Shown: positions 11,699-60,149 of the stretch, piece after piece
How the letters are laid out: each line of letters opens with the position of its first letter
Position numbering within the stretch: position 1 is the first letter of the stretch
From: Escherichia coli
GTDB taxonomy: Bacteria; Pseudomonadota; Gammaproteobacteria; Enterobacterales; Enterobacteriaceae
DNA: 64,000 bases
NCBI RefSeq assembly: GCF_003018255.1
Contig: NZ_CP027440.1
Strand: one strand, 5' to 3'
Program-made: the position numbers and the translations under genes
The notes under the pieces: model-generated
Told to the model about the DNA's origin: nothing
What the model saw: only the letters and a program-made list of their open reading frames with translations
Databases searched by the model: none

Positions 11699-12028
11699 TT
11701 ATAACGGTGTTAGCCCGTATTTAGCTCTTGCACGATTGCAAGCCTCATTGACTTCTCCGTTCTCACCAGACATGGCGAATTCTCTGCATGTGGACGATCG
11801 ATTTTCATATATCGTGCAGCAGGCATTTTTGCCCGGTGTTCCTGCAAGGGCAATACATCGGGGATTTTTCTGATTAGTACCGCTCATGCATCGGTGAAAA
11901 GGGGATATTTGTTCAGTGAGCCTGGCGGGAATGGTACCGCCAGCATCGTCAGCTTCGGCCCAGTAAAAAGAGACGCGGAAAAATGCACAACAGGCACCAC
12001 ACGTCATGCATGGATTCAGATTGCTCAT
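11699..12028 (-). CDS. ykgJ: Cys-rich ferredoxin-like protein YkgJ
   Basis: 109-aa ORF with CxxC motifs (CMTCGACC). Confidence 0.8.
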
Positions 12029-12340
12029 AATTCACCAGTACAGCTATAAATCGTAAAGAGAACTGCGGTACGTCGTATGCAGGGATGTATCGCGGTTGGC
12101 TGGTGTACTTTCGATAGTGTGAGTATTGAATGATTTCCAGCCGTTACCGATTTTACGTCCTAATTAGTGAAGAAACCACTCGTTAGCAGGCCGCCTGGTA
12201 CCTTTCCGTGTCTCCTGAACACTGTGGTGTGCATATGAGAAAGCTCATCGTTACAGGTGACATTGACGATCGCTTCCACATCATTTAAACGATTTTTGAG
12301 TCTCTGAGGTGGAATTCTTCCCTCGTCCGATGGATAAGTC

Positions 12341-13051
12341 TTAGTCCGCCGAAGGGGGCTTAGCCGGACAGGAATCGCTAATCTTAATGAATTTGTCGTT
12401 ATAGACCAGATAATGATTCCCCGGCTGACGTAACTCAGGCTGATGAACCACGTCTCCCGGACGTAGATACCAGGCATCGCCTTCCTCTTCGGTCGAATCA
12501 CATCCTGGTTTAATCAGTAGCTTAAACCACGTGTTGCCGGTGTTACTTACCGTTCCGGTCACCTGATCGAAGGACCATTTAAACTGAACCTGACGTGGTC
12601 GTACTACCAGAATGGTATCCATCACCACCACCGGCTCCGTGCTGACCTCACCGCCGGTTGGGCTGCGTTTTGTCAGGTTACGAGTGGGGACCTCGCGAAA
12701 TGAGACCCGGTAGTAGCGCTCGCGGTTATCCCGTGGACCATGATAGTAAAATTTAAAATACTCGCTCTCACCAGTCTGCAACGCCAGCTGGCGGGGGGCG
12801 AAAAGTAGTTCACCATCCACCGGTCGGGTGCGCAATTCACTGCTGCCCGGGCTATCAATAGCACTGATGGCAATACGGTATATCCGCGCGCTTTTGTTGT
12901 TATTCACGACACGTTTGCTGACAAAGTCAGTCTCGGACGGCAGTGAAAAAGTCAGATTGCCGACCGAAATCGCCTGTGTCAAAGGTGCCGCCAGCATACA
13001 GACCACTGTCAGCAGGGCCTTAGTTAATGTTACGCCACGTCGCCTGAACAT
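12341..13051 (-). CDS. ecpE: E. coli common pilus chaperone EcpE
   Basis: 236 aa from [14 protein letters not shown] (signal peptide); overlaps ecpD 3' end. Confidence 0.85.
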
Positions 13052-14663
13052 GAATCTCTCCTGAAGCGCTGACTTCGCCAAACCAGCCGTTATCATCTAC
13101 CGTACGCAGAGAAATGGCGTTATCCATTGGAATCGAAAATTTGACTGTGGTCTTATCCATCTGCCCCACTTCGCCAGAGATATCAGTCCACGGTGTGGTC
13201 AACCACAGCGCATCGGTCATATCCCGCCAGCTATCATCGCACCCGGCATCGTAGGTTTTTGTAGCTCCGTTGCGGGTAATAAAGGAAAGCGTCGCCGGGA
13301 ACGGTACTTTCGCCTTACCGTCATCGGAGCTGAAGACACAATAGGAGCGCCCGCCAATCACCTGCGCGGGTCCGGTCACCTTGATCAGCACTTCGTCGGC
13401 AGCTGTTTTACCGCTGGTGGTTACGATATAGCCGAAATCGAGTGCCGACTCGCCGCTGCCAACATATCCCTCCCGCGACGGTGTCTGAGTATATTCATCG
13501 GAGATAATACTGATGCTGAAATCACGGGGTTTGATAATCAGCGTGTTGGAGGTAGAAAATTCATACCAGCCAGACTCCGGTGATGTGGTGTTCTGAAAGC
13601 GAAAGTTGAATAGATCTTTGGTGTTGATATCGCTGATCCCGAGGTTCACCATCTGTTTAAAGAAGTTGCTCGAGAAGAAAACATAGATCGAGTCTGCGCT
13701 CTTCATCTCGTTGAAGGTGTAGTAATAGGCAGTATTGCTCACCGGTTTCCATGAACTGCCATTCAGACTGAACTGCATATCGTACGCCCCGACGGCCGAG
13801 GCTAACGACGAGTTGGCGATCGCCGGGAATATATGGATTGAGGTGTTGCTGAGTCCGTTTGTTTGCAGGGTATAGTTAACCATCTTACAACTTAATCCTG
13901 AACGGCTGCCGATGGTTTGCGTCCGGCAGTCGGCGTTCCCTTCGCCCAGAGTCGGTACTCCGTCGCTGTTGATAAATACTTCCGCCAGCGAGTGGGTATT
14001 TATCAACCGCAGATTTGCTGCTTTCGTATGGGTGACGTTGCGAACATACCAGTTGCCGGAGGCCTGATCCTTACAGCGTGCGCCGCTGCTGGCGTCATAG
14101 TTCACAGAGGTCTGGCAGGCATTGATGGTCATTGTAAAGCTGCTGCCGACGGGCATTTGTTGCAGATACTGGTAAAACGCGTCTGACAACATGCCGTGCA
14201 TCCATTTCGCGCCGCCGCTGGTCACCGTCGCGCCATAAAATCCACTGGCGTCGGTGGTTTGCGGCAGGATAAGACTGGTGGTCATATTACACCCTGCGTA
14301 CCAGTTGATGCAGCGCAAGCCAGTTAAAGGAGATGAAACTGGTGAATTTTCCAGCCACATATCAAACTTCCAGTTGGTATAAAGGCCGGTGTTGTAACCG
14401 TTATCAATGTAGCCGAGGCTTTGCTGATAGATGGTTCCTGAACCATTGTATTTTAAACCGGTCCAGCGGTTGGCACCGGTCAGGCGCGGATCCAGCGCCC
14501 CGCCAGGAGTGACGAAAAAGTTGTCGTCTGAGTTGTTTTCGACAAACACAAACTCGCGTGCCGGAGCATCCGCCCAGGTTGTTTTGCTCACTGCCGCTCT
14601 GAGCGCGGTTGCAGGCCAGATTAGCGCAAAGATTATCATCGCTATCAGTAGGTTAACTCTCAT
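13020..14663 (-). CDS. ecpD: E. coli common pilus tip adhesin EcpD
   Basis: 547-aa secreted protein, position in ecp operon. Confidence 0.85.
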
Positions 14664-17178
14664 TCTCTTCTCCTGTCTGCGTCACCGCCGCCCACGATGA
14701 GAGGCCGCTGCAGACCACATCACCGACCCAGACGGCACCGCGCGCCTGGTTGAGTTCCAGTGCCACTTCGCAGGTTTTATTGCCACTGTAGCGAAAATCG
14801 ATAGTGGGGTATTTCTTATCCACGTCCATGACAAACTCGCCGTTTTCATCGGTTCGGGTTCGGCCGATATGGTTGTTAATCCGTGCGTTAGCCAGCAGTG
14901 TGCCGTCTTCCGCACGGATACGACCGGAGACGGTAACCATCTGCTTCACCTCTGGCTCAATGACAGCGACATTGCCTGGATAGAGAGTCAGATGACTTTT
15001 GCGACCGCTGACGATATCGTAACTGTCGAGTGAGTTTTTGCTGTTCTGCAACTCCACCTCATATCTTCCATAGGGAGAGAGCGGGAGATAGTTACGCTTG
15101 CCGTTAAGCGGGAAAATCCGCCCGTTGATTTTGGCGCTGATCTGACCATCGTTCTCCAGGCCAGTGTCGAATATCACCCCAGCGTTGCCATCGGTCCGCC
15201 CGCTGGCAGCGATGTTTTTACCCTGCCAGCCGACGCTGCCGTTGGCGGTCAAATTAGTATTGATGTAGCCGTCCGCCGCGCTATTGACGTTCAGCGTTCC
15301 GCTGGCGTAACGAGCGTCGAACTGTGCATACGCCCCACCGCTGAGGGTTTTGTCATCACCGGTATCGCCGGAGATGGCTCGTGACAGATTGGCACCAACA
15401 GTGCGAATGGTTCCTTCATCAAACTGTTTGCGTGCTGACAGGTTTGCCATGGTGTAGCCGTTTTGATGGGTCATCCCTGCGCTAAACCAGTTGCCCAGTG
15501 GTAGCGAGAGATCGAGAGCGATATATTTCCCTGTATTGGCGCTGCTGTCGCCGTTGTTATAGCGCTGAATACCGGCCCGCAGGCCAAGCGAACCAAAGGT
15601 ACCGCTGTAGACACTTTGATAGTAATCTGCCGTGTAATAATGGCTGTTGTAGCGGCGGTCATCATTGTAGCTGATGCTGAACGTACCCAGCTTCGACCAC
15701 AGTGAGTTCAGGTTGAGTGTGCCGCCGATTGCACGGTTGTCGGCATCGCTACGTCGCAATTGATTGCCAATGCGGGTTTTTTCCTGGTTAACCCACAGCG
15801 AACTGAAGCCTCCAGGTAGAGTGGCGCTGATGCTGGCGATGTTGCTCCATGAGCTGTCACTGGCCAGCATGTTTTGCAGGTTAACGTTGATCGCCCCCCC
15901 AAGCGGCAGCGTCAGACGGGTTTCACCCACCGCCTGATTATCGTATCCATATCCCGTTGCCGCCCAGCTAAACGTACTCAGTGAGCCGGAGGTCGAGGCA
16001 CCTGCCAGCCAACTCTCTTTGGCTGGTCGCGTCTTTTTCCCGTTTTCCGACCAGCGATCCATATGAAAGCTACCGCCCCATATCTGCCACGCCAGCGGTG
16101 CACCGACGCCACGTCCCCGGCTAAACAGCTTATTGACCCGCTGGGTGCGTTTGCTGATCACGCGACCGTTAACGATTACCTCAACTTCCACATCGTAAAT
16201 ACCGTACGGTAGACCCCGGGTATCCACTTCATGATTGCCCATGGTGAAGTTCTGAACGCTTAGTAGCCGCCCATCACGGGTGAGATGTACTTCGCCCGCC
16301 GCCGGTAAAAAGGCGATCACTGGCGTGGCCGACTGGCTGCTGTCGAAGATGGTGGAGCTGGCCTGGTTTCCCCAGGAAAGGCCGTAAATCTTCCCTGCTG
16401 AAATGGCGGTCATCGGCCCTAAGGACTGCAAGTTCCAGGTGTCGAGCATTCCACCGGCAAATCGGTGACCAGCAAAATCGCGTTCATACATCGCTTTATA
16501 TAATTCACTGTCCTGTTGACCGCTACCAATCCCGTACAGTGAGCCGTCGAGCACCACGTGATGTTCGCGCAGCGCAGTAACGTTATTCAGCGACAGATAG
16601 CTGGAGGTGTTGCTCCCGCCGTTACGCAACTGGTTGTTATAGACGCCGAAGTTATAGCTCAGATTACTGCTGAGGGTGTTAACACTGGACTGCCCGATGT
16701 CTTCGCTACGTGAGCGTAGTACGGTGCCCAGCGCTTCGCGCTTGACCACCAGCTGCAGCAGCAGTTGGCGCAAGCTGAGATCCAACTGCGCGTTGTCAGT
16801 CAGGGGGATGGTAAGGGCCTCATTGAACGGGGCGTTGGCCAGAGTCATCAGCTGCTGTCGAGTTTGTTCGCTGACACTGGCGTTATCTTCACTCTCTTCC
16901 AGCTGTATTTTTCGGATGCGTAACTGTCCATCATCCAACCAGATAAAAGCGCTGCCGATTCGCTGATCGTCCTGGCGACCCTGGCTACCGGCGAGATGAA
17001 TATAAAGCGGGACGCTCATGCCGTCCTGGAGCGCCTGACTGAAGGCCTGCGGAATAATCACCCCACCTATTTGCTGCGCACTTATGTCAGCAGCGCTGGC
17101 ATCGGGCTGAACGAACAAAAAGACCATGCCGAAGGCAAACTGGGCTTTCAGTCCTGGGGAGAACCGTCGTAAAGGCAT
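14653..17178 (-). CDS. ecpC: E. coli common pilus usher EcpC
   Basis: 841-aa outer-membrane usher-sized ORF. Confidence 0.9.
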
Positions 17179-17203
17179 TGTCGTTATCCATCTGCACAGC
17201 TAT

Positions 17204-17872
17204 CTATTTCACGGGAATGAACTTATCACCCTGCCAAAGTGCAACCCGTCCTTTGTTATCCGCCGTGTCCACGCGGGTAAAACGACGCGACTTGCCCGGC
17301 ATCAGGTAGTAATTCTCTTTACACTCCTTACCATTGGCGGCTTTCAGGCAGGGGCCGTAGGCGAGGATCCGCAGCGTCGCATTTCCTGTATTTGTCAGGG
17401 AGCCGTTGGCGTACTGAAAGTGGTAGTTTGCCTGGCGGGGTGCGACGACCAGAATGGTGCCGATGCGGGCGGAAGCAGTGGCCACAGCGCTGCGGTTGGC
17501 ATTATCGCGCTGCGCATCACTGAGGGCCTGATCAAACCAGACAATGCGGTAGTAGCGCTCTTTTTCATCTGCTGGTCCCTTATAGAAGAAGCGGATCACT
17601 TCGCTGGCTTGGGCGGGTAGCAGCAAGCTGGCGGGAGTGAGTAGCAACTCATCCGGCTTGTCCATTGCGATAACCTGCCCGTCGTCAAGCGGTGAAGAGA
17701 GCCGTTCGAGACGGATATTGATGAGGCGGCCACTGTCGGTACTGTTTTGGATCGTTTTGCTTAGCGTGCTGCTGTCACTGTTCATAAACGATGATATATC
17801 GCCGACATCCAGCGCCTGGGCCGGTGATATTCCGGAAAACAGCAGAGCGAGAGGCAGAAGGTGCTTTTTCAT
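17204..17872 (-). CDS. ecpB: E. coli common pilus chaperone EcpB
   Basis: 222 aa from [20 protein letters not shown]. Confidence 0.85.
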
Positions 17873-17928
17873 AACAATTCCGTCCAGGAATAAAGCAGGG
17901 GGGTACCCCTGCTGGTACATCAGAGAGA

Positions 17929-18516
17929 TTAACTGGTCCAGGTAGCGTCGAACTGTACGCTAACGTCGCCGCTCCAGATGCCTTCCGGTAGAGTGCTGTA
18001 ATCGGTTACTGCGGTGGTACCATTGGTGGTGCCGCTGATGATGGAGAAAGTGAAACCATCCTGTGCGGTGGTACGATTGCTGGCATTGTAACCGTTAGCC
18101 AGTGGGCTAAGGTTGCCGCCCAGTACGCCGTTGGCGGTATCGATCATCACGGTATCGCCAGTTTTTTCGACTGCCGCGCCGTTATAATCCACGCCCACAT
18201 TCAGTGTGGAACCTGAGGTATCCAACTGGGTTAAGGTGTTGGTGATAAGGCGTGAGGTCAGTTTAAAGGCGGTAGCCGTTGAGTCACCCTCGATAGCCAC
18301 GTCAAATAGACCTTTTTGTGAGTTAAAACCTTTAATGCCTTCGGCATACTGGAACGCCAGGCTACCGAGTGGCGTCACAACCAGCTTACTGGTGGTGTCT
18401 TTTTTGGCTGTTGCTGACCAGGTCGCTACAGCCTGAGCTGTTACGTCAGCAGCCTGCGCTACACCTGTACCGGTAAACACCGTTACCAGAGCTATTGCCA
18501 GAACCTTTTTTTTCAT
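17929..18516 (-). CDS. ecpA: E. coli common pilus major subunit EcpA (MatB)
   Basis: 195-aa [25 protein letters not shown]... Confidence 0.9.
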
Positions 18517-18589
18517 TGCTTTTCTTCCCGAGTTGAATTGAGGACATGAAGTCCCGGTGAGTCATTTTTAAAACTAACTTGCCTGGAGT

Positions 18590-19201
<612 letters not shown>

Positions 19202-19603
19202 TTACAGGTACATTCAGTTTCTTTAGTAAATCGGAAGTAAATAAGATACGTAGCACATATCAATATAGGTTAAACGAGATTAAGTTTTAATTATTTCGAT
19301 TAGGTTTAAATTTATGTTTTTTTCCTGATGAGTGTCAATATGTGAACAGAAAATGAATTCCATGGTTAAGTCAATATTTACAAAAAATGAAAATATTGCT
19401 TTTTTGATAAGAAGAAAAAGACATTCAGTTTCATAAGGTTATTGGCAATATAACGTTCAATTCTTACTTGCATTTTATATTAGCCAGGAACTTTGCCCTG
19501 AGGTGTTAGGAATAGTCTTAATGTGTTGTGTAATGGACTAGTAAAAAAACAAGTTTAAATGATAAGAAATGGAATATAAAACTATCATAAGTCATAATTA
19601 AAG

Positions 19604-19894
19604 ATGATTTGCCAATCAGTAAGGTGTTTTAATGGATTAACATGCCGCACAAAATGGTTGTGGGTGTTCATCCCAATAAGTGATGAAAAATTAAACAGGT
19701 GTAAGTACGTCATCTGTCCGGTAAGCCCCCCAAGAGCCAAATTAAGTGAAGTTAAACGAAGACTGCCAGTTGTCACAGGAACGATGGCCTCTTTGCCAGG
19801 GCACTGCATTCAGTCATCTGTACGCGTTACTCTAACTGGCACTCGAACGTCGGCGATGGGGTTACCGATGGATCTGGCCGTTCCTGTGGCGTAA
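19604..19894 (+). CDS. Small hypothetical protein (position corresponds to ykgL); start uncertain
   Basis: 96-aa ORF in the AT-rich ecpR-rpmJ2 intergenic region; no domain recognised. Confidence 0.25.
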   Translation: MICQSVRCFNGLTCRTKWLWVFIPISDEKLNRCKYVICPVSPPRAKLSEVKRRLPVVTGTMASLPGHCIQSSVRVTLTGTRTSAMGLPMDLAVPVA

Positions 19895-20215
19895 ACGTTT
19901 TTATGTCAGTACCAACAGATTTACCACATTTATCATCTTAACAGTTTGAGTGTAAATGCAGGCTGCGTCGCAAAGGGAGGAAACTGAGTGGCGTGTTCAG
20001 TCTAAAATAGAGTTGATGCCAGCATACAGGGCGCAGCTGGTCAACAAGTCAACATTAATATAATGGAATATTCGGAGAGAAACGTCAGGCAGTTGACCTT
20101 AAATTAACAGGAAGATACATCCCCAGGAAAATTAATGCTGGTGTAATAAATACACCAACATTAATCCGGTATGATTATTAATCAGACAAATATCGTTAAT
20201 TCGTCGAATTTTGAA

Positions 20216-20356
20216 TCAACGTTTTTTCTTACGACCCTGAACGGCCTTAAAACGTGGATTAGATTTACAAATCACATACAGCCGTCCTTTTCGCTTCACA
20301 ATCTGACAGTCTGGATGGCGTTCTTTTGCGGTACGCAGAGAGTTAAGGACTTTCAT
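20216..20356 (-). CDS. rpmJ2: 50S ribosomal protein L36 paralog (zinc-independent type)
   Basis: Manual minus-strand translation gives [46 protein letters not shown] (46 aa); too short for the ORF track; 1-nt overlap with rpmE2 stop. Confidence 0.9.
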
Positions 20357-20622
20357 CATGCCCCCTTTTTCGTGCTAACAAAACGACCAAAACGTTGGGT
20401 GAACCGTGCAACATTTCCTTCTGATGCCACTGTTCTCAGCTTCCCTGTATAGAACGGGTGCGATTTCGAAGAGACATCAATTGTTACGTACGGATACGTT
20501 ACGCCATCCAGCTCAATCTCACGGTCTGTTTTGATAGTCGAGCCGATTTTAAAGTACTCATCAACGCTGGTGTCGTGGAACACCACAGTACGATACTCAG
20601 GATGGATATTGGGTTTCATCAT
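20356..20622 (-). CDS. rpmE2: 50S ribosomal protein L31 paralog (type B)
   Basis: 88-aa [22 protein letters not shown]... Confidence 0.9.
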
Positions 20623-20630
20623 TTTTACCT

Positions 20631-20648
20631 GTTATGTTATAACATAAC
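20631..20648. promoter_or_regulatory. Zur box upstream of rpmE2-rpmJ2
   Basis: Perfect 18-bp palindrome GTTATGTTATAACATAAC 9 bp upstream of the rpmE2 start. Confidence 0.7.
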
Positions 20649-21565
20649 CGTAAAGATACATGCTCATCCGGATCATTTCAACACCCAATCACTGTGACTA
20701 TTTGTGGGATGTGGAATTTCCGCAACGGGGAAGTCTGGCATTGTTAGCAGCCATTGGCGACGCTCCCATAAACGCCTGGATGAGTGATTGATGATGGTTT
20801 CGCTGAGAGTATGGATTTTTCGAGAATGGAGGCTATCTCCACTTTACTGGCCGATGATTTATTGCAGCATGATTGATTACCTGACAATGTGTATTCCTCT
20901 CCCACGGATATAATAATTACTTACAAAAAAGGGAGAGGATGCATATTTTAAATATCACTGAAGTGAACAGTTTATTGCCGTTATTAATAGAAATGGAGAA
21001 ATAAATAGGCGTATTCTACAATTGCGACAAAAACAACGATATTAATCAGTTTATGACTGATTTGCTGTACTTTATTCTCTTTCATTGGTACTTCCTCGCT
21101 TTAAAAAAGAGTGCACTTCGTAAGTGCCCTTATATAAATAACGAGTTTGGTCAACCAATTTTTTGACATGTATCACAAATTTGAATAGATGTATTACATC
21201 GGCTATCTTTTATTGCCCCAACGTCATTGATATATGTCGCCTGAAATCAGTTACGGGAATGAGTCTGATCTCAAGACTGGCCCAGTCCTGGCGTTGATTG
21301 GCGCTGAGGAGCATATCGCATCTCATCGTAACGTCGTATCTCCTGGGGTGTTATACAAGATATCGTTGTAGGTAACCAGGGAGAGGAATTGAGTCTATTA
21401 AACCGTCAACTATGCCGGATACATACTGGATTACACTGCAGGCACGCCTTACGAGAGAACGTGCCGCAGTGACGGGTTAATTATCTGAAAGAATTTGCGA
21501 GGCTGTATCGGTTACTCATTGATTTGATAGTTTTACTCTCGGGAGAGTAATCGATATTTAATCCA

Positions 21566-21808
21566 TTAACGGAAACCAGCCAGTTCCTTTCGATGTCTGA
21601 ATTTCCTTGGCGTGACATAGGTATATCCTGTAATTACTAAACCAATATTTTGTGAGCGACGTTTATAATATTCGAGTTCTTGCTCAGAGATGGTTCCATC
21701 AGGATTAGCTGACCAGGTCGTCATAGGAGCCATAACGATACGATTACATGGCTTTATTTTTTCTGTCAGCATAAAAGGAGAAAACAGTGATAGGTGTTTA
21801 TTTGTCAT
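21566..21808 (-). pseudogene. N-terminal fragment of an Old Yellow Enzyme-type NADH:flavin oxidoreductase
   Basis: 80-aa ORF with IVMAPMTTW...GLVITGYTYV resembling the OYE/NemA N-terminus; truncated. Confidence 0.4.
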
Positions 21809-22101
21809 GACAATACCTCAAATGTTTATCTGATTTTGATGTGTATATTTAAACTGGTTAGTTGTTACCAGCTTTGGAACCAAGATTTTTGGCTTTGTTT
21901 TTATTTATAATTACTGTTAGTGCTTTTATTGATTTTATGGTGGAGAAAAGAGTAAAAATAGAAAGTTAATGATGTGTGTCAGAATATCGGTAAGAAGAAT
22001 GGCACAATCGTGAGGGTACGTTTATTCATAATAAATCTCCTGAAAGTTTAGAATTATTTTCGATACAGCCAGATTATCATTGTTACTAATAATGTGGTTA
22101 A

Positions 22102-24974
<2,873 letters not shown>

Positions 24975-25524
24975 TTATCGTTCATGAGAAGCATAACGTA
25001 AAGGGAAGAGCTCGATTAGACGGCAGGATTTGTCAGGGGTTATGAACAAAATTCATAAATCTGTTTGAGGGTTGAGATTAGTCGTGCAAGTTCGATATCC
25101 CCGGAATTTACAGTCCGATGAATAAAAATGAATGTCCATAAAAAATATATTGGTTTATCCCAGCGTATATACTTACTTCGACGTACTCCCAATAGCAGTT
25201 AATTAAAGACGGGTCATTATTATTCACTCTGAATAATGAATTATTCACTGCCCGCAGAGTAAGAAATATAACTTAAGTATCTATTTAATGACTTGCACAA
25301 AAAGCTAAATTTTTACCCATAAATAAAAATATAATCCCGCGCCCAACCACCTGATGAGTGGCTACAGACACTGGATATATTAGGTGGCGGTGTACTTTCT
25401 TACATAAAGGTATTTCCTTTTCTGTGGAAAAGGAAACCGGGAAATCCCCGGTTTTTCTGACAAGCAGACGCCATTATTTGTGTCTGCCTATGTTCGTTAA
25501 TTCGTTCATCAGGAAATTATCTCA

Positions 25525-28500
25525 ATGTCACGTTATAAAACAGACAATAAACAGCCACGATTTCGTTATTCAGTTCTGGCCCGCTGCGTGGCGTGGGCAA
25601 ATATCTCTGTTCAGGTTCTTTTTCCACTCGCAGTCACCTTTACGCCAGTAATGGCAGCACGTGCGCAGCATGCGGTTCAGCCACGGTTGAGCATGGAAAA
25701 TACTACGGTAACTGCTGATAATAACGTGGAGAAAAATGTCGCGTCGCTTGCCGCTAATGCCGGGACATTTTTAAGCAGTCAGCCAGATAGCGATGCGACA
25801 CGTAACTTTATTACCGGAATGGCCACCGCTAAAGCTAACCAGGAAATTCAGGAGTGGCTCGGGAAATACGGTACTGCGCGCGTCAAACTGAATGTCGATA
25901 AAGATTTCTCGCTGAAGGATTCTTCGCTGGAAATGCTTTATCCGATTTATGATACACCGACAAATATGTTGTTCACTCAGGGGGCAATACATCGTACCGA
26001 CGATCGTACTCAGTCAAATATTGGTTTTGGCTGGCGTCATTTTTCAGAAAATGACTGGATGGCGGGGGTGAATACTTTTATCGATCATGATTTATCCCGT
26101 AGTCATACCCGCATTGGTGTTGGTGCGGAATACTGGCGTGATTATTTGAAACTGAGCGCCAATGGTTATATCCGGGCTTCTGGCTGGAAAAAATCACCGG
26201 ATGTTGAGGATTATCAGGAACGCCCGGCGAATGGCTGGGATATTCGTGCTGAGGGCTATTTACCTGCCTGGCCGCAGCTTGGCGCAAGCCTGATGTATGA
26301 GCAGTATTATGGTGATGAAGTCGGGCTGTTTGGTAAAGATAAACGCCAGAAAGACCCGCATGCTATTTCTGCCGAGGTAACCTATACACCAGTGCCTCTT
26401 CTGACACTGAGCGCCGGGCATAAGCAGGGCAAGAGTGGTGAGAATGACACTCGCTTTGGCCTGGAAGTTAATTATCGGATTGGCGAACCTCTGGAAAAAC
26501 AACTCGATACAGACAGTATTCGCGAGCGTCGAATGCTGGCAGGCAGCCGCTATGACCTGGTTGAGCGTAATAACAATATCGTTCTTGAGTATCGCAAATC
26601 TGAAGTGATCCGTATTGCTCTGCCTGAGCGTATTGAAGGCAAGGGCGGCCAGACGGTTTCCCTGGGGCTTGTGGTCAGCAAAGCAACTCACGGTCTGAAA
26701 AATGTGCAATGGGAAGCGCCGTCTTTGCTGGCCGCAGGCGGAAAAATTACGGGGCAGGGCAATCAGTGGCAAGTGACGCTCCCGGCTTATCAGGCAGGCA
26801 AAGACAATTATTATGCGGTTTCAGCGATTGCCTACGATAACAAAGGCAATGCCTCGAAACGTGTGCAGACAGAAGTGGTTATTAGCGGAGCTGGTATGAG
26901 CGCCGATCGTACGGCGTTAACGCTTGACGGTCAGAGCCGTATTCAAATGCTTGCTAACGGTAATGAGCAAAAGCCGCTGGTGCTGTCTCTGCGCGACGCC
27001 GAGGGTCAGCCAGTCACGGGCATGAAAGATCAGATCAAGACTGAACTAACTTTCAAACCGGCTGGAAATATTGTGACTCGTTCTCTGAAGGCCACTAAAT
27101 CACAGGCAAAGCCAACACTGGGTGAGTTCACCGAAACTGAAGCAGGGGTGTATCAGTCTGTCTTTACTACCGGAACGCAGTCAGGTGAGGCAACGATTAC
27201 TGTTAGCGTTGATGGCATGAGCAAAACCGTCACTGCAGAACTGCGGGCCACGATGATGGATGTGGCAAACTCCACCCTGAGCGCTAACGAGCCGTCAGGT
27301 GACGTGGTTGCTGATGGTCAGCAAGCCTACACGCTGACGCTGACTGCGGTGGACTCCGAGGGTAATCCGGTGACGGGAGAAGCCAGCCGCCTGCGACTTG
27401 TTCCGCAAGACACTAATGGTGTTACCGTTGGTGCCATTTCGGAAATAAAACCAGGGGTTTACAGCGCCACGGTTTCTTCGACCCGTGCCGGAAACGTTGT
27501 TGTGCGTGCCTTCAGCGAGCAGTATCAGCTGGGCACATTACAACAAACGCTGAAGTTTGTTGCCGGGCCGCTTGATGCAGCACATTCGTCCATCACCCTG
27601 AATCCTGATAAACCGGTGGTCGGCGGTACAGTTACGGCAATCTGGACGGCAAAAGATGCCAATGACAACCCTGTAACAGGCCTCAATCCGGATGCACCGT
27701 CATTAGCGGGTGCCGCTGCTGTAGGTTCTACGGCATCGGGCTGGACAAATAATGGTGATGGGACGTGGACTGCGCAAATTACTCTCGGCTCTACGGCGGG
27801 TGAATTAGAAGTTATGCCGAAGCTAAATGGACAGGATGCGGCAGCAAACGCGGCAAAAGTAACCGTGGTGGCTGATGCATTATCTTCAAACCAGTCGAAA
27901 GTCTCTGTCGCAGAAGATCACGTAAAAGCCGGTGAAAGCACAACCGTAACGCTGGTGGCGAAAGATGCGCATGGCAACGCTATCAGTGGTCTTTCGTTGT
28001 CGGCAAGTTTGACGGGGACCGCCTCTGAAGGGGCGACCGTTTCCAGTTGGACCGAAAAAGGTGACGGTTCCTATGTTGCTACGTTAACTACAGGCGGAAA
28101 GACGGGCGAGCTTCGTGTCATGCCGCTCTTCAACGGCCAGCCTGCAGCCACCGAAGCCGCGCAGCTGACTGTTATTGCCGGAGAGATGTCATCAGCGAAC
28201 TCTACGCTTGTTGCGGACAATAAAACTCCAACGGTTAAAACGACGACGGAACTCACCTTCACCGTGAAGGATGCGTACGGGAATCCGGTCACCGGGCTGA
28301 AGCCAGATGCACCAGTGTTTAGTGGTGCCGCCAGCACGGGGAGTGAGCGTCCTTCAGTAGGAAACTGGACAGAGAAAGGTAATGGGGTCTACGTGTCGAC
28401 CTTAACGCTGGGATCTGCCGCGGGTCAGTTGTCTGTGATGCCGCGAGTGAACGGCCAAAATGCCGTTGCTCAGCCACTGGTGCTGAATGTTGCAGGTGAC

Positions 28501-29775
28501 GCATCTAAGGCTGAGATTCGTGATATGACAGTGAAGGTTAATAACCAACTGGCTAATGGACAGTCTGCTAACCAGATAACCCTGACCGTCGTGGACAGCT
28601 ATGGTAACCCGTTGCAGGGGCAAGAAGTTACGCTGACTTTACCGCAGGGTGTGACTAGCAAGACGGGGAATACAGTAACAACCAATGCGGCAGGTAAAGC
28701 GGATATTGAGTTGATATCAACCGTTGCAGGGGAACTTGAAATCGCGGCCGCGGTGAAAAACTCTCAGAAGACGGTCACGGTGAAATTCAACGCGGATGCC
28801 AGCACCGGTCAGGCAAACCTGCAGGTTGACACCGCCGTTCAAAAAGTGGCAAACGGCAAAGATGCCTTTACGCTGACGGCGACCGTTGAGGATAAAAACG
28901 GTAACCCTGTTCCAGGCACTCTGGTGACCTTTAATCTGCCCCGGGGTGTCAAGCCGCTTACTGGCGATAATGTCTGGGTGAAAGCCAACGATGAGGGGAA
29001 AGCGGAGTTGCAGGTGGTTTCCGTGACTGCCGGAACCTATGAGATCACGGCGTCGGCAGGAAATGACCAGCCTTCGGATGCGCAGACTATAACGTTTGTG
29101 GCCGATAAGGCGACCGCAACCGTCTCCGGTATTGAGGTGATTGGCAACTATGCACTGGCGGATGGCAAAGCCAAACAGACGTATAAAGTTACGGTGACTG
29201 ATGCCAATAACAACCTGTTGAAAGATAGCGAGGTGACGCTGACTGCCAGCCCGGCAAATTTAGCTCTGGATCCCGATGGGACGGCGAAAACTAATGAGCA
29301 AGGGCAGGCTATTTTCACCGCTACCACTACTGTTGCGGCGACATACACACTCAAGGCGCAAGTGAGTCAGACCAACGGTCAGGTATCAACGAAAACTGCC
29401 GAATCTAAATTCGTCGCGGATGATAAAAACGCGGAGCTCGCTGCATCTCCAGAGCGTGTAGATTCTCTGGTGGCGGACGGGAAGACTACTGCAACACTGA
29501 CGGTTACTCTGATGTCGGGTGTCAACCCCGTAGGAGGAACCATGTGGGTCGACATTGAGGCTCCGGAAGGGGTGACAGAGGCGGATTATCAGTTCCTGCC
29601 GTCGAAAAATGACCATTTCGCGAGCGGGAAAATCACGCGTACATTTAGTACCAACAAGCCAGGTACATACACATTCACATTCAACTCTTTGACATATGGA
29701 GGGTATGAAATGAAACCAGTGACTGTGACAATTAACGCCGTTCCTGCAGATACTGAAGGCGCTGAGGAGAAATAA
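25525..29775 (+). CDS. eaeH: Intimin/invasin-family adhesin EaeH (FdeC), intact
   Basis: 1416-aa ORF; N-terminal beta-barrel anchor region followed by many tandem bacterial Ig-like (Big) repeats. Confidence 0.9.
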   Translation: MSRYKTDNKQPRFRYSVLARCVAWANISVQVLFPLAVTFTPVMAARAQHAVQPRLSMENTTVTADNNVEKNVASLAANAGTFLSSQPDSDATRNFITGMATAKANQEIQEWLGKYGTARVKLNVDKDFSLKDSSLEMLYPIYDTPTNMLFTQGAIHRTDDRTQSNIGFGWRHFSENDWMAGVNTFIDHDLSRSHTRIGVGAEYWRDYLKLSANGYIRASGWKKSPDVEDYQERPANGWDIRAEGYLPAWPQLGASLMYEQYYGDEVGLFGKDKRQKDPHAISAEVTYTPVPLLTLSAGHKQGKSGENDTRFGLEVNYRIGEPLEKQLDTDSIRERRMLAGSRYDLVERNNNIVLEYRKSEVIRIALPERIEGKGGQTVSLGLVVSKATHGLKNVQWEAPSLLAAGGKITGQGNQWQVTLPAYQAGKDNYYAVSAIAYDNKGNASKRVQTEVVISGAGMSADRTALTLDGQSRIQMLANGNEQKPLVLSLRDAEGQPVTGMKDQIKTELTFKPAGNIVTRSLKATKSQAKPTLGEFTETEAGVYQSVFTTGTQSGEATITVSVDGMSKTVTAELRATMMDVANSTLSANEPSGDVVADGQQAYTLTLTAVDSEGNPVTGEASRLRLVPQDTNGVTVGAISEIKPGVYSATVSSTRAGNVVVRAFSEQYQLGTLQQTLKFVAGPLDAAHSSITLNPDKPVVGGTVTAIWTAKDANDNPVTGLNPDAPSLAGAAAVGSTASGWTNNGDGTWTAQITLGSTAGELEVMPKLNGQDAAANAAKVTVVADALSSNQSKVSVAEDHVKAGESTTVTLVAKDAHGNAISGLSLSASLTGTASEGATVSSWTEKGDGSYVATLTTGGKTGELRVMPLFNGQPAATEAAQLTVIAGEMSSANSTLVADNKTPTVKTTTELTFTVKDAYGNPVTGLKPDAPVFSGAASTGSERPSVGNWTEKGNGVYVSTLTLGSAAGQLSVMPRVNGQNAVAQPLVLNVAGDASKAEIRDMTVKVNNQLANGQSANQITLTVVDSYGNPLQGQEVTLTLPQGVTSKTGNTVTTNAAGKADIELISTVAGELEIAAAVKNSQKTVTVKFNADASTGQANLQVDTAVQKVANGKDAFTLTATVEDKNGNPVPGTLVTFNLPRGVKPLTGDNVWVKANDEGKAELQVVSVTAGTYEITASAGNDQPSDAQTITFVADKATATVSGIEVIGNYALADGKAKQTYKVTVTDANNNLLKDSEVTLTASPANLALDPDGTAKTNEQGQAIFTATTTVAATYTLKAQVSQTNGQVSTKTAESKFVADDKNAELAASPERVDSLVADGKTTATLTVTLMSGVNPVGGTMWVDIEAPEGVTEADYQFLPSKNDHFASGKITRTFSTNKPGTYTFTFNSLTYGGYEMKPVTVTINAVPADTEGAEEK

Positions 29776-29794
29776 AAACGACGATGTAATAAAT

Positions 29795-29870
29795 AATAAT
29801 GGCGTTGACATGCGCAGCGCCATTATTTACTGAATACCTACCCTGGTACCGATTAGACGGTGGCAGGGTA
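29795..29870. terminator. Two hairpins between the convergent eaeH and AraC-family genes
   Basis: aataatggcg...cgccattatt and taccctg...cagggta stems. Confidence 0.4.
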
Positions 29871-29899
29871 GGGTAAATCTTATGTGATGGATTTACAGG

Positions 29900-30790
29900 C
29901 TAAACCGGGCGAACGGGGATAAAAATTTCGCAAACAATGTTATTGCTATCAATTTCGACGAAGTTTTCATTGTAATAAAACCGCTCAATATCACTGCCGT
30001 TCACTCTGGCTAACCCCCTGGCGGGTAATTCCATCAGATAGAGGTTTCGCGCCCATTCAGGGTAGTGCTCCCACTCACCTTCATAGCGGAAAGAGGCATA
30101 CAGTCCTCGGTTAATTGTCCACTCTTTCGACATCTCTGAATCGGTTTGTTTGCATACCGTACCGGCAAAAGTTTCAACTGTGAGCAAATCGACCGATTTT
30201 GTTGATGGTTCGAACGTGGAGACGAAATAGATATCCGTCTTAAAACTCTTCATACATCTGGCTAAATGATGACGTCGCAGTTTGACTTCTTCATCCGGTG
30301 ATTTATTCGACACTTCAATGTCATATTTAAATGAATCGCCAAAAATAGGTGTCTCAGGAAAGTTGACTAATTTACACTCCGTCTTTTGCTGTTGACGTAT
30401 TAAAAAAGAAGGGAAGATATTTGCGAGATCCCAATAATCACGGTGGCGGTATTCACGGGGAGAGCAGCCGAATAACTTTTTAAATTCGCGGCTGAATGAC
30501 TGCTGTGAATCAAAATGCAAAGAGAGTGCAATATCAAGCATAGATTTCGCGGTGAGCCGGACAAGAATGGCGGCACGACAAAGCCTTCGTTTGCGAATGT
30601 ATTCTCCCAAAGGCACATGCATGAAATTTCGGAACAGAAGCTGGATGTTGCGTCTGCTGTAGCCAGATTTCTGTGCGATATCTTCGATTGAAATAGGGTG
30701 TTCGAGATTGCACTCAATCCACTCCAGGAGCTGCTGTAGAATCTTCTGCCTGATCATCACATTCTCCATTAATTCTTCGTCATATCGCAC
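29900..30790 (-). CDS. ykgA: AraC-family regulator with C-terminal GyrI-like effector domain (YkgA-like)
   Basis: AraC HTH in the N-terminal half; true start may be an internal Met (MENVMIRQ). Confidence 0.7.
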   Translation of the reverse strand: MRYDEELMENVMIRQKILQQLLEWIECNLEHPISIEDIAQKSGYSRRNIQLLFRNFMHVPLGEYIRKRRLCRAAILVRLTAKSMLDIALSLHFDSQQSFSREFKKLFGCSPREYRHRDYWDLANIFPSFLIRQQQKTECKLVNFPETPIFGDSFKYDIEVSNKSPDEEVKLRRHHLARCMKSFKTDIYFVSTFEPSTKSVDLLTVETFAGTVCKQTDSEMSKEWTINRGLYASFRYEGEWEHYPEWARNLYLMELPARGLARVNGSDIERFYYNENFVEIDSNNIVCEIFIPVRPV

Positions 30791-30990
30791 ATTTTCGTTA
30801 TGCCCTGGGCCCTAAGTGTATCAAAAACAGCAAGGCCGAAGGCAAAAGCACTGGTAGCGTCTGCTTCGTTGTCCCCGAAAATAGAGAGGTTTCAGTCCTA
30901 CATTATTAATGAATTTTTTGCATAAGTGATATCAAAATCCACATACTAATTTGAGGTTACGTTTTAACGTAGACTCATTGTTCATGCCTA

Positions 30991-31875
30991 ATGGAGGGAC
31001 TGACAGTGGAATTTTCCGTATTAAGTAACAATCTGAAAATGCCGATGATGGGATTTGGTGTTTTTCAGGTTACCGATAAAAACGTGTGCAAACAGTCAGT
31101 GTTGAACGCTATCCGCACGGGTTATCGACTCATCGACACTGCAGCGGTATACGGTAATGAAGATGCCGTCGGTGAAGCCGTTCGTGAAGCTATATCTGAA
31201 GGTTTATGTACCCGAGATGAGTTATTTATAACGTCTAAATTGTGGGTGCAGGATATGTTGAATCAGGATACGGCAGCAGCAGGTATTGAAGCATCATTAA
31301 AAAAATCGGGACTAGAGTACTTCGACCTCTATTTATTGCACCAGGCTATGCGCGATTATTTCAGTGCGTGGCGTGCACTCGAAGATGCCTATGAAGAGGG
31401 CAAATTAAAAGCAATTGGGGTTTCCAATTTCTATCCTCATGTTCTGGCGAACTTTTGTGAAACGGTAAGAGTTAAACCGATGGTCAACCAGGTCGAGTTG
31501 CATCCCTATTTTGCCCAACCAGAGGCGCTGGCAACCATGAAGTATTATAACGTGCAGCCTGAAGCATGGGCTCCGTTAGGTGGTGGACGACATAAACCCT
31601 TTGAAAATAATCTGCTTCAGAGTATTGCAGATGCCCATCAAAAATCGATTTCTCAAGTCATTCTGCGTTGGAATATTCAACGGGGAGTGGTCGTTATTCC
31701 GAAATCGACACATCAACAGCGTATCGAAGAAAATTTTGCTATCTGGGATTTCTCACTGACAGAGAAAGAAATGGCACAAATTAGTTCGCTTGATTTGGGT
31801 TATGTTGGGGAGTCGGTAAAACATTTTAATCCTGAATTTGTTCGTGGTTGTCTTGCTGTAAAAATACATGATTGA
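30991..31875 (+). CDS. Aldo-keto reductase
   Basis: 294-aa ORF with ...MPMMGFGVFQV... and AKR motifs. Confidence 0.8.
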   Translation: MEGLTVEFSVLSNNLKMPMMGFGVFQVTDKNVCKQSVLNAIRTGYRLIDTAAVYGNEDAVGEAVREAISEGLCTRDELFITSKLWVQDMLNQDTAAAGIEASLKKSGLEYFDLYLLHQAMRDYFSAWRALEDAYEEGKLKAIGVSNFYPHVLANFCETVRVKPMVNQVELHPYFAQPEALATMKYYNVQPEAWAPLGGGRHKPFENNLLQSIADAHQKSISQVILRWNIQRGVVVIPKSTHQQRIEENFAIWDFSLTEKEMAQISSLDLGYVGESVKHFNPEFVRGCLAVKIHD

Positions 31876-32034
31876 TATTAATCATATATTTTACCTGAGA
31901 CGACAAGAATCTTTTAACAGGGGAGTGATATTGATCTTCACTCTGTCATATCTCCGGTAATATGGCGTCAGGCTTCATCATCAGAAAGGGGGCCTGACGC
32001 CTGAAAAAGTGAACAACAGACAGTGTTCGGATTA

Positions 32035-32628
32035 TCAATATTCAGTTTTTAACGTTGAACTGGATTCATTACTGCGTTGTTTAAGAATATCCCGCGCCGA
32101 ATCTGCCATTATCATGACAGCACCTGCCAGCATCAGAGTATCTTTCAATACCAGACGACCAGCACCGGATAAATAAGGGAAACCATGATGAGCGTCACCC
32201 AATGCGGGTACCCATGCCTCCGGGGTGGTGATTAAAAATGAGAGTGTTACCAGCGGCGTGGTAAATGCCATCAGCCCTCCCAGTAAACCTAACCAGCGAT
32301 TGACAGGATTAGCCAAAACCAGCAGAGCAATAATCACCTCCACGACGCCAAGACCGTTGGAAAAACCATAGGTATTATTAGCCGTTTGCCATGCTCTTGC
32401 TTCTGGTTTGTATTCGCCTTCGTGAGTCAGATGCTGTTTATAGTCTTCCGGGTGTTCATAAAAGAACGACATTAGTGGACTGTTTGCGACGAATGGTGTA
32501 ATGCTGTCTGCCTCGTAAGGGACAAACTTTAATAACCCAATCCACATAAAAACAATCGCAATACTCAGACGAATCAATGTCAGGCCAATTTTATCTCCCC
32601 GACTTAACAGGTGCAGGTATCTTTCCAT
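32035..32628 (-). CDS. rclC: Reactive chlorine resistance membrane protein RclC (DUF417)
   Basis: 197 aa from MERYLHLL; several transmembrane segments. Confidence 0.85.
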   Translation of the reverse strand: MERYLHLLSRGDKIGLTLIRLSIAIVFMWIGLLKFVPYEADSITPFVANSPLMSFFYEHPEDYKQHLTHEGEYKPEARAWQTANNTYGFSNGLGVVEVIIALLVLANPVNRWLGLLGGLMAFTTPLVTLSFLITTPEAWVPALGDAHHGFPYLSGAGRLVLKDTLMLAGAVMIMADSARDILKQRSNESSSTLKTEY

Positions 32629-32639
32629 TGTAAACATCC

Positions 32640-32876
32640 TTATTTATACAATACTGCTGTTGCGGTTGAATTATTATCAATTCGCATCGATGTAACTTTC
32701 CAGGATGAAGCATTATATTTTCTGGCCATATCAGCAATGGCATTCTCAAGAACTGTCGGTGATGCTGATACTGATGAGACGCTGATATGTTTCAGAATTA
32801 TTTTATCATCTGCATTGGTGGAAAATGCCATAACGCCAGATAATAGTGTTGCAAATAAAACAGATTTTTTAAACAT
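32640..32876 (-). CDS. rclB: Periplasmic DUF1471 protein RclB
   Basis: 78 aa from MFKKSVLFATLLSGVMAFSTNA; signal peptide. Confidence 0.8.
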   Translation of the reverse strand: MFKKSVLFATLLSGVMAFSTNADDKIILKHISVSSVSASPTVLENAIADMARKYNASSWKVTSMRIDNNSTATAVLYK

Positions 32877-32984
32877 ATAAAATACCATCAATGAAGTGAT
32901 TAAGAAGTTATAAAGTAACAGGGAATTAATAAGATTCTTTTCTCTGAGACGCCGGAATATTTGTTCTGGCGTCTGATTTTGAGT

Positions 32985-34310
32985 TTATTTGACTAATGAA
33001 AATAGATCATTGAGTGATTCGCTCATCGACGGATGAGTAAATATCTGATCGCGTAATATGCTATAAGGCAGCCCGGCATCCATCACCATTTTCACTATAT
33101 TGATCATCTCGTGGGAGTCAACACATAGCAGTGATGCCCCTAATATACGTTGGGTTTTATTATCAACAATCGCTTTTAATACCCCACGGGTATCGTTCAT
33201 CACTCTGGCGCGCGGAATTGCAGCTACAGGCAATGTCACCACCTGAATATCAGCACCACTCTCTCTGGCTTGTTCTTCTGTCATACCAACCCTGGACAGG
33301 GGCGGTGTCATAAATACGGAATAAGGCACATTTTTCCGATCATCAGTACTACGTTTGCCTTCACCCAGTAACTCATCACGTACAATGCGGTAATCATCTA
33401 GTGATATGTAAGCAAATTGCAGCCCGCCGGTAACATCTCCCATCGCCCAAATATTGTCTGCGGTGGTATGTAATCGCTTGTCAACGACAATTGCCCCGCG
33501 CTCGTTTACTGCGATACCGGCATTTTCTGGATGTAACGAAGCGGTAGCTGGTTGACGACCGGAAGCTATTAACAGTGCATCCACCGCCAGTTGGGCGTGC
33601 TCGCTATGCACTTGCACTTGATTTTCATGGTGACTGATTCGCTCCACATGGGCATTGAGGATTATATCGACACCCTGATCGCGTAAAATCGTCGCGATAT
33701 TATCAGCAATATCCCGATCTTCCCGAGGCAAAAACAGCGAAGCTGCCTCTAAAATGGTTACTTTGCTGCCAAAATTAGCGAACATAGAGGCGAACTCAAC
33801 GCCAATATATCCGCCGCCCAAAATACCTAAATGCCCAGGCAATTCTTTTAGATTAAGTAATCCGGTGCTGTCATATACACCAGGCGTGGTGGTAATTCCA
33901 GGAATTGGCGGAACCACGGCTTGTGCACCGGTATTAATAAAAATTTTCTCGCCATGAATCTCCAGATTTCTCCCAGGCCGATGAACACGCAGGCTATGAT
34001 TATTGATAAACTCCGCCTGGCCGTCGATCACGTCGATATTGGGCATATCCGCAAGATTATGAAAATTCTTATTACGTAAAAAATTAACCACTTCATTTTT
34101 ACGCTGTATGGCACGGACAAAATCTGTGTGCTGCTGTGCGTCATGAACCAATGTTTTGGTTGGGATACAGCCGATATTAATACAGGTCCCGCCATACATT
34201 GCATTTGATTGTTCGATGAGAGCCACACGCCAACCTGCTTTTGCCAGCGTGACGGCTAATGTTTTTCCAGCCTTGCCAAAACCAATAATAACTGCCTGAT
34301 ATTTATTCAT
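32985..34310 (-). CDS. rclA: Pyridine nucleotide-disulfide oxidoreductase RclA
   Basis: 441 aa from MNKYQAVIIGFGKAGKTLAV; FAD-binding GxGxxG and CxxxxC motif. Confidence 0.9.
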   Translation of the reverse strand: MNKYQAVIIGFGKAGKTLAVTLAKAGWRVALIEQSNAMYGGTCINIGCIPTKTLVHDAQQHTDFVRAIQRKNEVVNFLRNKNFHNLADMPNIDVIDGQAEFINNHSLRVHRPGRNLEIHGEKIFINTGAQAVVPPIPGITTTPGVYDSTGLLNLKELPGHLGILGGGYIGVEFASMFANFGSKVTILEAASLFLPREDRDIADNIATILRDQGVDIILNAHVERISHHENQVQVHSEHAQLAVDALLIASGRQPATASLHPENAGIAVNERGAIVVDKRLHTTADNIWAMGDVTGGLQFAYISLDDYRIVRDELLGEGKRSTDDRKNVPYSVFMTPPLSRVGMTEEQARESGADIQVVTLPVAAIPRARVMNDTRGVLKAIVDNKTQRILGASLLCVDSHEMINIVKMVMDAGLPYSILRDQIFTHPSMSESLNDLFSLVK

Positions 34311-34536
34311 GATGATTTCCTGTCGAAACGCGTTCATTTGACATCATGACTATAGACGCAAAAGAGCAAATAACATTTCTTCACAACGCTTGATATTTTG
34401 TCTTATCGTCTGGTATTTTCTTTTTCTTAATCAGAATCACAAAACAAAAATCATGATTAACTATTTGATGGTATTAGATTAATTATTGACTAAGATTGTT
34501 GGTGTTTGTAATCAAAAAACCACTCAGGAGTCTGAT

Positions 34537-35391
34537 ATGGATGCTCTTAGCCGTTTGTTGATGCTTAACGCTCCACAAGGAACGATCGATAAGAATTGCG
34601 TGTTAGGAAGTGACTGGCAACTTCCACATGGTGCCGGGGAATTGTCGGTTATTCGTTGGCATGCGTTAACGCAAGGAGCGGCGAAGCTGGAAATGCCGAC
34701 GGGAGAGATTTTTAGATTACGCCCGGGAAATGTGGTCCTGCTACCACAAAATTCAGCTCATCGCCTGAGTCATGTCGATAATGAATCGACCTGTATTGTC
34801 TGTGGCACTCTTCGGCTGCAACATTCGGCGCGTTATTTTTTAACATCTTTGCCGGAAACGCTGTTTGTAGCACCAGTGAACCATAGCGTGGAATATAACT
34901 GGCTGAGGGAGGCGATCCCGTTTTTACAACAGGAATCCAGATCGGCAATGCCGGGAGTGGATGCTCTGTGTAGCCAGATCTGCGCTACATTCTTTACCCT
35001 CGCGGTGCGTGAGTGGATTGCACAGGTTAATACAGAGAAAAACATTCTCAGTTTGCTTCTGCATCCACGTCTTGGTGCGGTAATACAGCAAATGCTGGAA
35101 ATGCCAGGACACGCCTGGACCGTCGAATCGCTGGCCAGCATCGCCCACATGTCCCGGGCAAGTTTTGCCCAGCTTTTCCGTGATGTTTCCGGAACCACGC
35201 CGCTGGCTGTATTAACAAAGTTGCGTCTACAAATAGCGGCCCAGATGTTTTCCCGGGAAATGCTCCCTGTTGTGGTGATCGCTGAGTCAGTAGGCTATGC
35301 CAGTGAATCATCTTTTCACAAGGCGTTTGTCCGCGAGTTTGGTTGTACTCCGGGAGAATATCGGGAAAGGGTGAGACAGCTTGCACCCTGA
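34537..35391 (+). CDS. rclR: AraC-type redox-sensing regulator RclR
   Basis: 284 aa from MDALSRLL; divergent from rclA. Confidence 0.85.
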   Translation: MDALSRLLMLNAPQGTIDKNCVLGSDWQLPHGAGELSVIRWHALTQGAAKLEMPTGEIFRLRPGNVVLLPQNSAHRLSHVDNESTCIVCGTLRLQHSARYFLTSLPETLFVAPVNHSVEYNWLREAIPFLQQESRSAMPGVDALCSQICATFFTLAVREWIAQVNTEKNILSLLLHPRLGAVIQQMLEMPGHAWTVESLASIAHMSRASFAQLFRDVSGTTPLAVLTKLRLQIAAQMFSREMLPVVVIAESVGYASESSFHKAFVREFGCTPGEYRERVRQLAP

Positions 35392-36638: not shown

Positions 36639-36648
36639 GGATATAAAG

Positions 36649-38764: not shown

Positions 38765-38868
38765 GAGAGATATGAAGTCTGGACATAAACCTGAAGGCGG
38801 CACGAGGTTGTGAATTGCGTTAAGGACAACCTGACTTAACCCCGTTCCGTCATGGTTATGCTGCTCTT

Positions 38869-49127: not shown

Positions 49128-49140
49128 CACGTTTCCTCGG

Positions 49141-49728: not shown

Positions 49729-49856
49729 TTTCGCCACTCCATTCATCAGCGTTGTTTATCTATTAAAGCGGTTATTGATTGGACGTTCAATATAAAATGT
49801 GTCTTAATTGTTACGAATTTGATTTTAAATGGTAACAATAACAGTGGGGATACTGG

Positions 49857-51890: not shown

Positions 51891-51903
51891 TTGTTATTGC
51901 ATA

Positions 51904-60139: not shown

Positions 60140-60149
60140 GTTACATGTT

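Follow-up and report, generated by a model that had tools for sequence, protein, structure and literature searches.

The exchange of a zinc-binding ribosomal protein for a zinc-free paralogue under the control of Zur has been described in several bacteria, and examples include YtiA of Bacillus subtilis, the alternative ribosomal proteins of Mycobacterium, and RpmE2 of Neisseria, as set out in two sources (PMC7297116; PMC13343924). In Escherichia coli, the corresponding genes are ykgM and ykgO. Replacement of bL31A in ribosomes by the YkgM-type protein is described in literature cited in PMC9825181, and L31p has been reported to repress rpmE via the rpmE leader (PMC9825181). Work on Zur at its L31p, znu, and zinT targets, which used EMSA and RT-PCR, described two Zur dimers on opposite faces of the DNA, bound to RNNNYxxxRNNNY elements that overlap, and a region of protection by Zur that measures ~30 bp in the operators of znuABC, L31p, and zinT (PMC4219657). 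Among the operators studied, that of L31p was first in symmetry and had the tightest apparent Kd, together with a 560-fold repression in vivo (PMC4219657). A preliminary description of the DNA analyzed here had suggested checking expression of the locus under zinc depletion and in a zur mutant, and such an experiment is already in the literature: a ykgM-lacZ fusion with negligible expression in the wild type rose almost 1000-fold with zur::kan or TPEN (PMC7297116). In E. coli Nissle 1917, calprotectin was found to induce ykgM ~2500-fold and ykgO ~1000-fold (PMC10410751), and the ykgMO promoter is in use as a calprotectin/zinc biosensor in that strain (PMC10410751, PMC12279244).

The locus under study lies in a window of 64,000 nucleotides (the whole stretch of DNA that was analyzed), which is part of an E. 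coli chromosome and extends from dinB to beyond yahJ. The genome closest to the window is that of strain JNE23-011, with 99.5–99.7% identity over positions 1..25000 and 50001..64000; this strain is absent among the best matches listed for 25001..50000, and the gene content of the window was read off its genome. With a probability of roughly 97%, the locus is the known ykgM-ykgO operon, a Zur-repressed two-gene unit for the zinc-independent (C-, type B) paralogues of bL31 and bL36. The present analysis bears on the identities of the genes, the loss of their zinc ligands, the match, uniqueness, and conservation of the operator motif, and the way in which the operator is placed with respect to a conserved promoter-like element, and nothing contradictory to this explanation was found. 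The features of the locus are as follows:

20676..20681, minus strand: predicted -35 element of the ykgMO promoter, TTGAAA, by consensus match
20653..20658, minus strand: predicted -10 element, TATCTT, by consensus match
20631..20648, strandless: Zur operator, a perfect 18-bp palindrome, GTTATGTTATAACATAAC, by motif match, conservation, and published binding
20628..20630, minus strand: AGG, a putative Shine-Dalgarno-like element of ykgM, recognized from the sequence (...AAC AGG TAAAA ATG ATG)
20356..20619, minus strand: ykgM (rpmE2), type B, zinc-independent bL31B of 87 aa (MKPNIHPEY...)
20216..20356, minus strand: ykgO (rpmJ2), type B bL36B of 46 aa (MKVLNSL...)
20127..20165, minus strand: candidate 3' end of ykgMO, a 15-bp stem with a 5-nt loop (20165..20131), then a short U run

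When open reading frames of at least 30 aa were listed over the interval 19900..21000, two adjoining minus-strand ORFs were obtained, and these correspond to ykgM and ykgO. The preliminary description had the layout of the pair and the palindrome right and left the strand, which is minus for both genes, unstated. It had also correctly observed that rpmJ2 is missing from the ORF track on account of its size of less than 60 aa, the ykgO ORF having 47 aa in the mechanical list. This last figure reflects the choice of start codon: in ykgM, the codon just before the annotated start is also an ATG (20622), from which the product would be of 88 aa, and ykgO has an in-frame ATG at 20359, from which it would be of 47 aa. 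In each gene, the second ATG is to be preferred: residue 1 of the L31 and L36 family profiles falls on it, as do the starts of RpmE and RpmJ, and RefSeq makes the same choice in the closest genomes, where ykgM and ykgO are annotated from the second ATG as they are here. With the annotated starts, the TGA of ykgM (20358..20356) and the ATG of ykgO (20356..20354) have a single base in common (...GCA TGATG AAA, in the string GCATGATGAAA), and the overlap of one nucleotide (TGATG) that had been noted earlier is indeed present, given the second ATG of ykgO. Translation of ykgO from the upstream ATG, a codon that reads GTG in K-12, would lengthen the overlap with ykgM to 4 nt (ATGA). Upstream of ykgO there is a GGGGG run, at a distance of 1 nt from the first ATG and 4 nt from the second, and the AGG upstream of ykgM (20628..20630) is 5 nt from the first ATG of that gene and 8 nt from the second.

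The assignment of the two genes as paralogues of L31 and L36 stands, with type B models, Pfam models, and the loss of zinc ligands all in agreement. YkgM passed the NCBIfam model for L31 type B (NF002462; 122.9 bits, cut-off 86) as well as Pfam Ribosomal_L31 (PF01197; 87.1 bits, cut-off 27), and it remained under the cut-off of 70 for the generic L31 equivalog models NF000612 and NF001809. YkgO passed both the NCBIfam model for L36 type B (NF002021; 91 bits, cut-off 70) and Pfam Ribosomal_L36 (PF00444; 68.6 bits, cut-off 26.1). In an alignment with K-12 RpmE, residues C16, C18, C37, and C40 of RpmE correspond to T, V, S, and S in YkgM, and there are no cysteines in the whole of the YkgM protein. 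The loss is partial in YkgO: compared with K-12 RpmJ, it has His14 at the place of the first Cys and Phe36 at that of the final His, such that two of the four zinc ligands are gone, and the two middle cysteines, C17 and C30, are kept. Both proteins also have counterparts in ribosome structure 6i7v, where the bL31B chain ('L31 type B') matches YkgM over residues 1–68 (E 2e-42) and the chain 'L36 2' matches YkgO (E 1e-26).

The perfect 18-bp palindrome that had been reported upstream of rpmE2 was found at 20631..20648. Its distance from the gene is 8 nt when measured to the first ATG (20622) and 11 nt when measured to the annotated ATG (20619), so the figure of 9 bp given in the preliminary description needs correction. 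The palindrome occurs in single copy in the 64-kb window, even when three mismatches are allowed, and it is the sole perfect 18-bp palindrome of the window. Palindromy by itself is nevertheless weak, non-significant evidence and was rejected as a stand-alone argument for a Zur box, since ~0.3 perfect 18-bp palindromes of any sequence are expected per shuffled window of this length.

Stronger evidence comes from the particular sequence of the palindrome, the centre of which is TTATAA. The Zur skeleton deduced from the structure, RxxxYRxxR*YxxYRxxxY (PMC4219657), agrees with it at 10/10 specified positions. Used as a scan of the window, the skeletal motif RNNNYRNNRYNNYRNNNY gave 223 matches against 274 expected, and was discarded as useless alone. 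Gilston et al. have given a 20-mer for the Zur site, TGWNAYRWTATAWYRTNWCA (PMC4219657), and positions 20630..20649 match it at 19/20 positions, the next best site in the window having two mismatches. Against the 23-bp gamma-proteobacterial consensus GAAATGTTATANTATAACATTTC, the palindrome matches at 16/22, a level reached at only two positions of the window. A weight matrix was also constructed, for which boxes were taken solely from orthologues outside Escherichia, and with it the ykgM site scored 28.3 bits, compared with 8.8 for the next best site in the window and 14.3 for the highest score in 30 random windows. In K-12 sequence, the same matrix recovered the operators of znuA/znuC and zinT, with 17.5 and 21.8 bits, respectively. 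A matrix scan of this kind had been proposed beforehand, and its result places the site far above both the rest of the window and the random maximum. Together with the skeleton, the 20-mer, and the conservation across genomes described below, it bears out the early suggestion that the palindrome has the architecture of a Zur operator. The second-best Zur-like site, TGATACGTTATATCTGTACA, lies in the betT-pdeL intergenic region (51945..51968) and has two mismatches to the published 20-mer; its score of 8.8 bits is within the random range, and it was set aside as probably not being a Zur site.

On the gene strand, a consensus scan detected a promoter-like arrangement of TTGAAA, a 17-nt spacer, and TATCTT, and the palindrome starts 4 nt past the -10 hexamer. 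The -35 hexamer is unchanged among the window, Nissle, and K-12. The hexamer match alone is weak evidence, since the scan gave two matches in the kilobase where 2.7 would be expected by chance. Judging from this spacing, transcription would start ~7 nt downstream of the -10 element, near 20646, which is within the palindrome. In the available text of PMC4219657, PMC7297116, and PMC12279244, neither the operator sequence nor a mapped transcription start was found.

Conservation was assessed by collecting 80 loci encoding relatives of YkgM from one-genome-per-species assemblies and aligning the 100 nt upstream of each, for a total of 81 sequences with the window. The sample included Escherichia, Citrobacter, Kluyvera, Enterobacter, Salmonella, Klebsiella, Serratia, Photorhabdus, Brenneria, Vibrio, and Pseudoalteromonas. 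The only informative blocks in the 81 upstream sequences were TTG of the -35 element, TA of the -10 element, and the box, with a weak signal for the Shine-Dalgarno sequence. In each of the 80 related genomes, the box follows closely behind a conserved -35/-10 pair. A Zur-type site (at least 17/20 of the published 20-mer, no more than 150 nt upstream) was present in all 80 related loci, where it is mostly 11–13 nt from the ATG, and the centre of the box lies 20–22 nt before the ATG in 69 of the 81 sequences. The core GTTATGTTATAAC was found in 59 and the core GTTATAAC in 72 of the 81 upstream regions. The exact 18-bp palindrome occurs in only six of them, perfect symmetry being lost in the other 75, and across genera the promoter-proximal arm of the box, TGTTATGTTAT, is clearly better conserved than the distal arm. 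Many of the Zur sites of Enterobacter and Kosakonia read TGTTATGTTATAACAAAACA, which is an asymmetric box. Lack of conservation of the palindrome, which the preliminary description had named as a finding that would speak against it, is thus confined to one property: the core is conserved generally, and perfect symmetry is limited to Escherichia and a few others.

As to the gene arrangement, a gene for L36B is located directly 3' of that for L31B in 80/80 related loci, as determined with tblastn. Most of the L36B orthologues begin with MQV rather than MKV. The two genes overlap only in Escherichia, by 1 nt in E. coli and by 4 nt (ATGA) in E. albertii; in other genera they are separated by 0–9 nt, with a gap of ~200 nt in one Brenneria. 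One member of the sample, locus L058, comes from a record titled Chryseobacterium sp. 18061 and carries an enterobacterial-type ykgM-ykgO pair with a Zur box. Both the pair and the box closely resemble those of a Citrobacter isolate (L052) of the same study, which suggests that the L058 assembly is mislabelled or contaminated.

Zur binding, the dependence of expression on zinc and zur, and the incorporation of both proteins into ribosomes are known from published work on the identical sequence of K-12 and Nissle, and these can be combined with the layout of the locus in a proposed mechanism. When zinc is sufficient, two zinc-loaded Zur dimers would occupy the 18-bp inverted repeat, covering positions -3 to about +16 relative to the predicted start. 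RNA polymerase would thereby be kept out and ykgMO would be silent; such an occlusion of the promoter is proposed because the box starts 4 nt past the -10 element and covers the presumed start. When zinc is scarce, Zur without zinc would leave the DNA, with a derepression of ykgMO by several hundred- to a thousand-fold. Translation of ykgO is probably coupled to that of ykgM through the TGATG stop/start. YkgM and YkgO would then take the place of the zinc-binding bL31 and bL36 in ribosomes, and this zinc-free replacement may serve to maintain translation and to spare zinc.

Several other readings of the palindrome were weighed. It could conceivably be an operator for another regulator of the Fur family, such as Fur itself (iron), as the boxes of this family are all A+T-rich inverted repeats that may be superficially alike, and the palindrome contains GTTAT/ATAAC units. 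The classical Fur box is matched at 10/19 positions, however, a level equalled or exceeded at 2674 positions of the window, and the central TATA of the palindrome is Zur-specific rather than Fur-specific according to PMC4219657. Since derepression in a zur mutant has also been published (PMC7297116, PMC4219657), the Fur reading is highly improbable, and it was rejected with a match no better than that of thousands of other positions. Even less credible is a scenario in which the palindrome is a chance feature of A+T-rich intergenic DNA and ykgM and ykgO are constitutive genes or relics. The ~0.3 perfect palindromes of unspecified sequence expected per window, along with an RNNNY skeleton that is uninformative alone (the 223 matches against 274 mentioned above), are what such a scenario can draw on. 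Against it, this particular sequence occurs only once in the window and scores far above random, the position and core of the site are kept in 80 other genomes in which the flanking intergenic sequence is not, and the ykgM and ykgO ORFs are both intact and conserved. Conservation and the published data rule this reading out.

It is also worth considering whether the palindrome acts chiefly as a 5'-terminal hairpin of the mRNA, with a role in translation or stability and a merely secondary likeness to a Zur box. Given the predicted start, the palindrome would be mostly transcribed, and a 7-bp stem could form just before the Shine-Dalgarno sequence. The fold is unexceptional, though (-9.4 kcal/mol, z = -1.0, equalled by 34 of 200 shuffles), and an Rfam scan of 19100..21600 at E <= 1 gave no match. 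The unequal conservation of the two arms and the loss of symmetry in 75/81 sequences are contrary to a base-paired stem, and bL31 supplied in trans had no effect on ykgM-lacZ (PMC7297116), such that this reading is very unlikely. A weaker version, in which the Zur operator, after the departure of Zur, has a second, post-transcriptional role, for example as a 5' hairpin that influences how stable the mRNA is or how ribosomes are loaded, is suggested by the operator beginning ~3 nt before the presumed start and lying mostly in the first ~16 nt of what would be a very short leader. This, too, is improbable, if not to the same degree; were it true, the near-constant distance of 20–22 nt between the centre of the box and the ATG might point to a constraint beyond promoter geometry. 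The palindrome is accordingly best regarded as the Zur operator of ykgMO.

Downstream of ykgO, the hairpin at 20131..20165 is a candidate terminator for the operon. RNA folding of 20225..20100 on the minus strand gave z = -5.8, with none of 200 shuffles equalling it. A consensus terminator scan of 20000..21000 called none, because the hairpin has an A+U-rich stem and a short U tract. The candidate terminator sits within the 3' end of ykgL (19956..20181, plus strand), which runs convergently to ykgO and, in the annotation of the closest genomes, is a pseudogene with a frameshift. In one paper, 'ykgL' is listed among the top three calprotectin-induced genes, along with ykgM and ykgO (PMC12279244); its induction could be explained by the counting of the ykgMO 3' UTR, or of read-through, on the opposite strand.

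As for distribution, the 901-bp region comprising ykgL-ykgO-ykgM (20000..20900) matches 5080 of 5426 complete E. coli genomes by megablast, and no megablast match to it was obtained in the other 346. Thirteen places that match the region are on records labelled as plasmids.

The surroundings of the operon hold several features of their own. On the other side of the promoter, 335 nt upstream of the Zur box, is ykgR (20984..21085, minus strand), an annotated gene for a small membrane protein of 33 aa, MKENKVQQISHKLINIVVFVAIVEYAYLFLHFY. Further along, at ~21572..21808 (minus strand), an NADH:flavin oxidoreductase gene is reduced to its N-terminal 80 codons, and the annotation of the closest genome has it as an incomplete pseudogene. 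At the same spot, the gene is complete in Nissle 1917 (1143 nt) and is accompanied by one for an alpha/beta hydrolase, and the ykgP remnant is present in K-12; the site is a variable spot adjoining ykgMO. A tRNA-Thr(CGT) gene at 10140..10215 (plus strand) is followed by a degraded integrase fragment at ~10229..10420, an arrangement that represents the thrW island site in an essentially empty state. Strain LF82 matches the thrW part of the window in seven pieces over 37 kb, vat included. Finally, at ~39.8–45.1 kb (approximate, as located via the closest genome), there are an autotransporter, hyxA, hyxR (LuxR family), and the tyrosine invertase ipbA (HbiF/FimX), an island that is absent from K-12 at that position.

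The finding of ykgMO is already known, as the operon is a textbook Zur target, and nothing in it is biologically new. Its utility here is that of a positive control, in which an operon of small genes and its operator could be recovered from raw sequence. A default ORF cut-off of 60 aa misses small genes of this kind, including ykgO with 46 aa and ykgR with 33 aa. The footprint that emerges across genera is a compact layout, with TTG of the -35 element, TA of the -10 element, and the box, whose distance from the ATG is fixed.

The locus may lastly be compared with the known systems in order of increasing distance. Nissle 1917 has the same sequence as the window over the promoter, the operator, and both genes, the three differences within 20000..20900 all being at or below 20213, and the two proteins are identical as well (WP_000803998.1 and WP_000866436.1). 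The ykgM-ykgO pair of K-12 (b0296-b4506), with its operator 'PL31p', has the same gene order, 1-nt overlap, 18-bp palindrome, promoter hexamers, and Shine-Dalgarno sequence as the window. Differences from K-12 amount to a few silent coding substitutions, TACGG in place of TATGG between the -10 element and the box, and ATG in place of GTG at the codon before the ykgO start. The neighbourhoods also differ, as K-12 has an IS3 element and an eaeH pseudogene, whereas the strain of the window has an intact fdeC. Within the Zur regulon of E. coli, the operators of znuA/znuC and zinT are like the ykgM box in their TGTTAT..ATAACA core and their recognition by the same matrix, and all are repressed by Zur (PMC4219657). 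Perfect 18-bp symmetry and the highest score belong to the ykgM box alone among these, in agreement with the first place that it has been reported to hold for both symmetry and affinity (PMC4219657). Among the C- switches of bacteria, the composition of the operon and the consensus of the Zur box vary from phylum to phylum.
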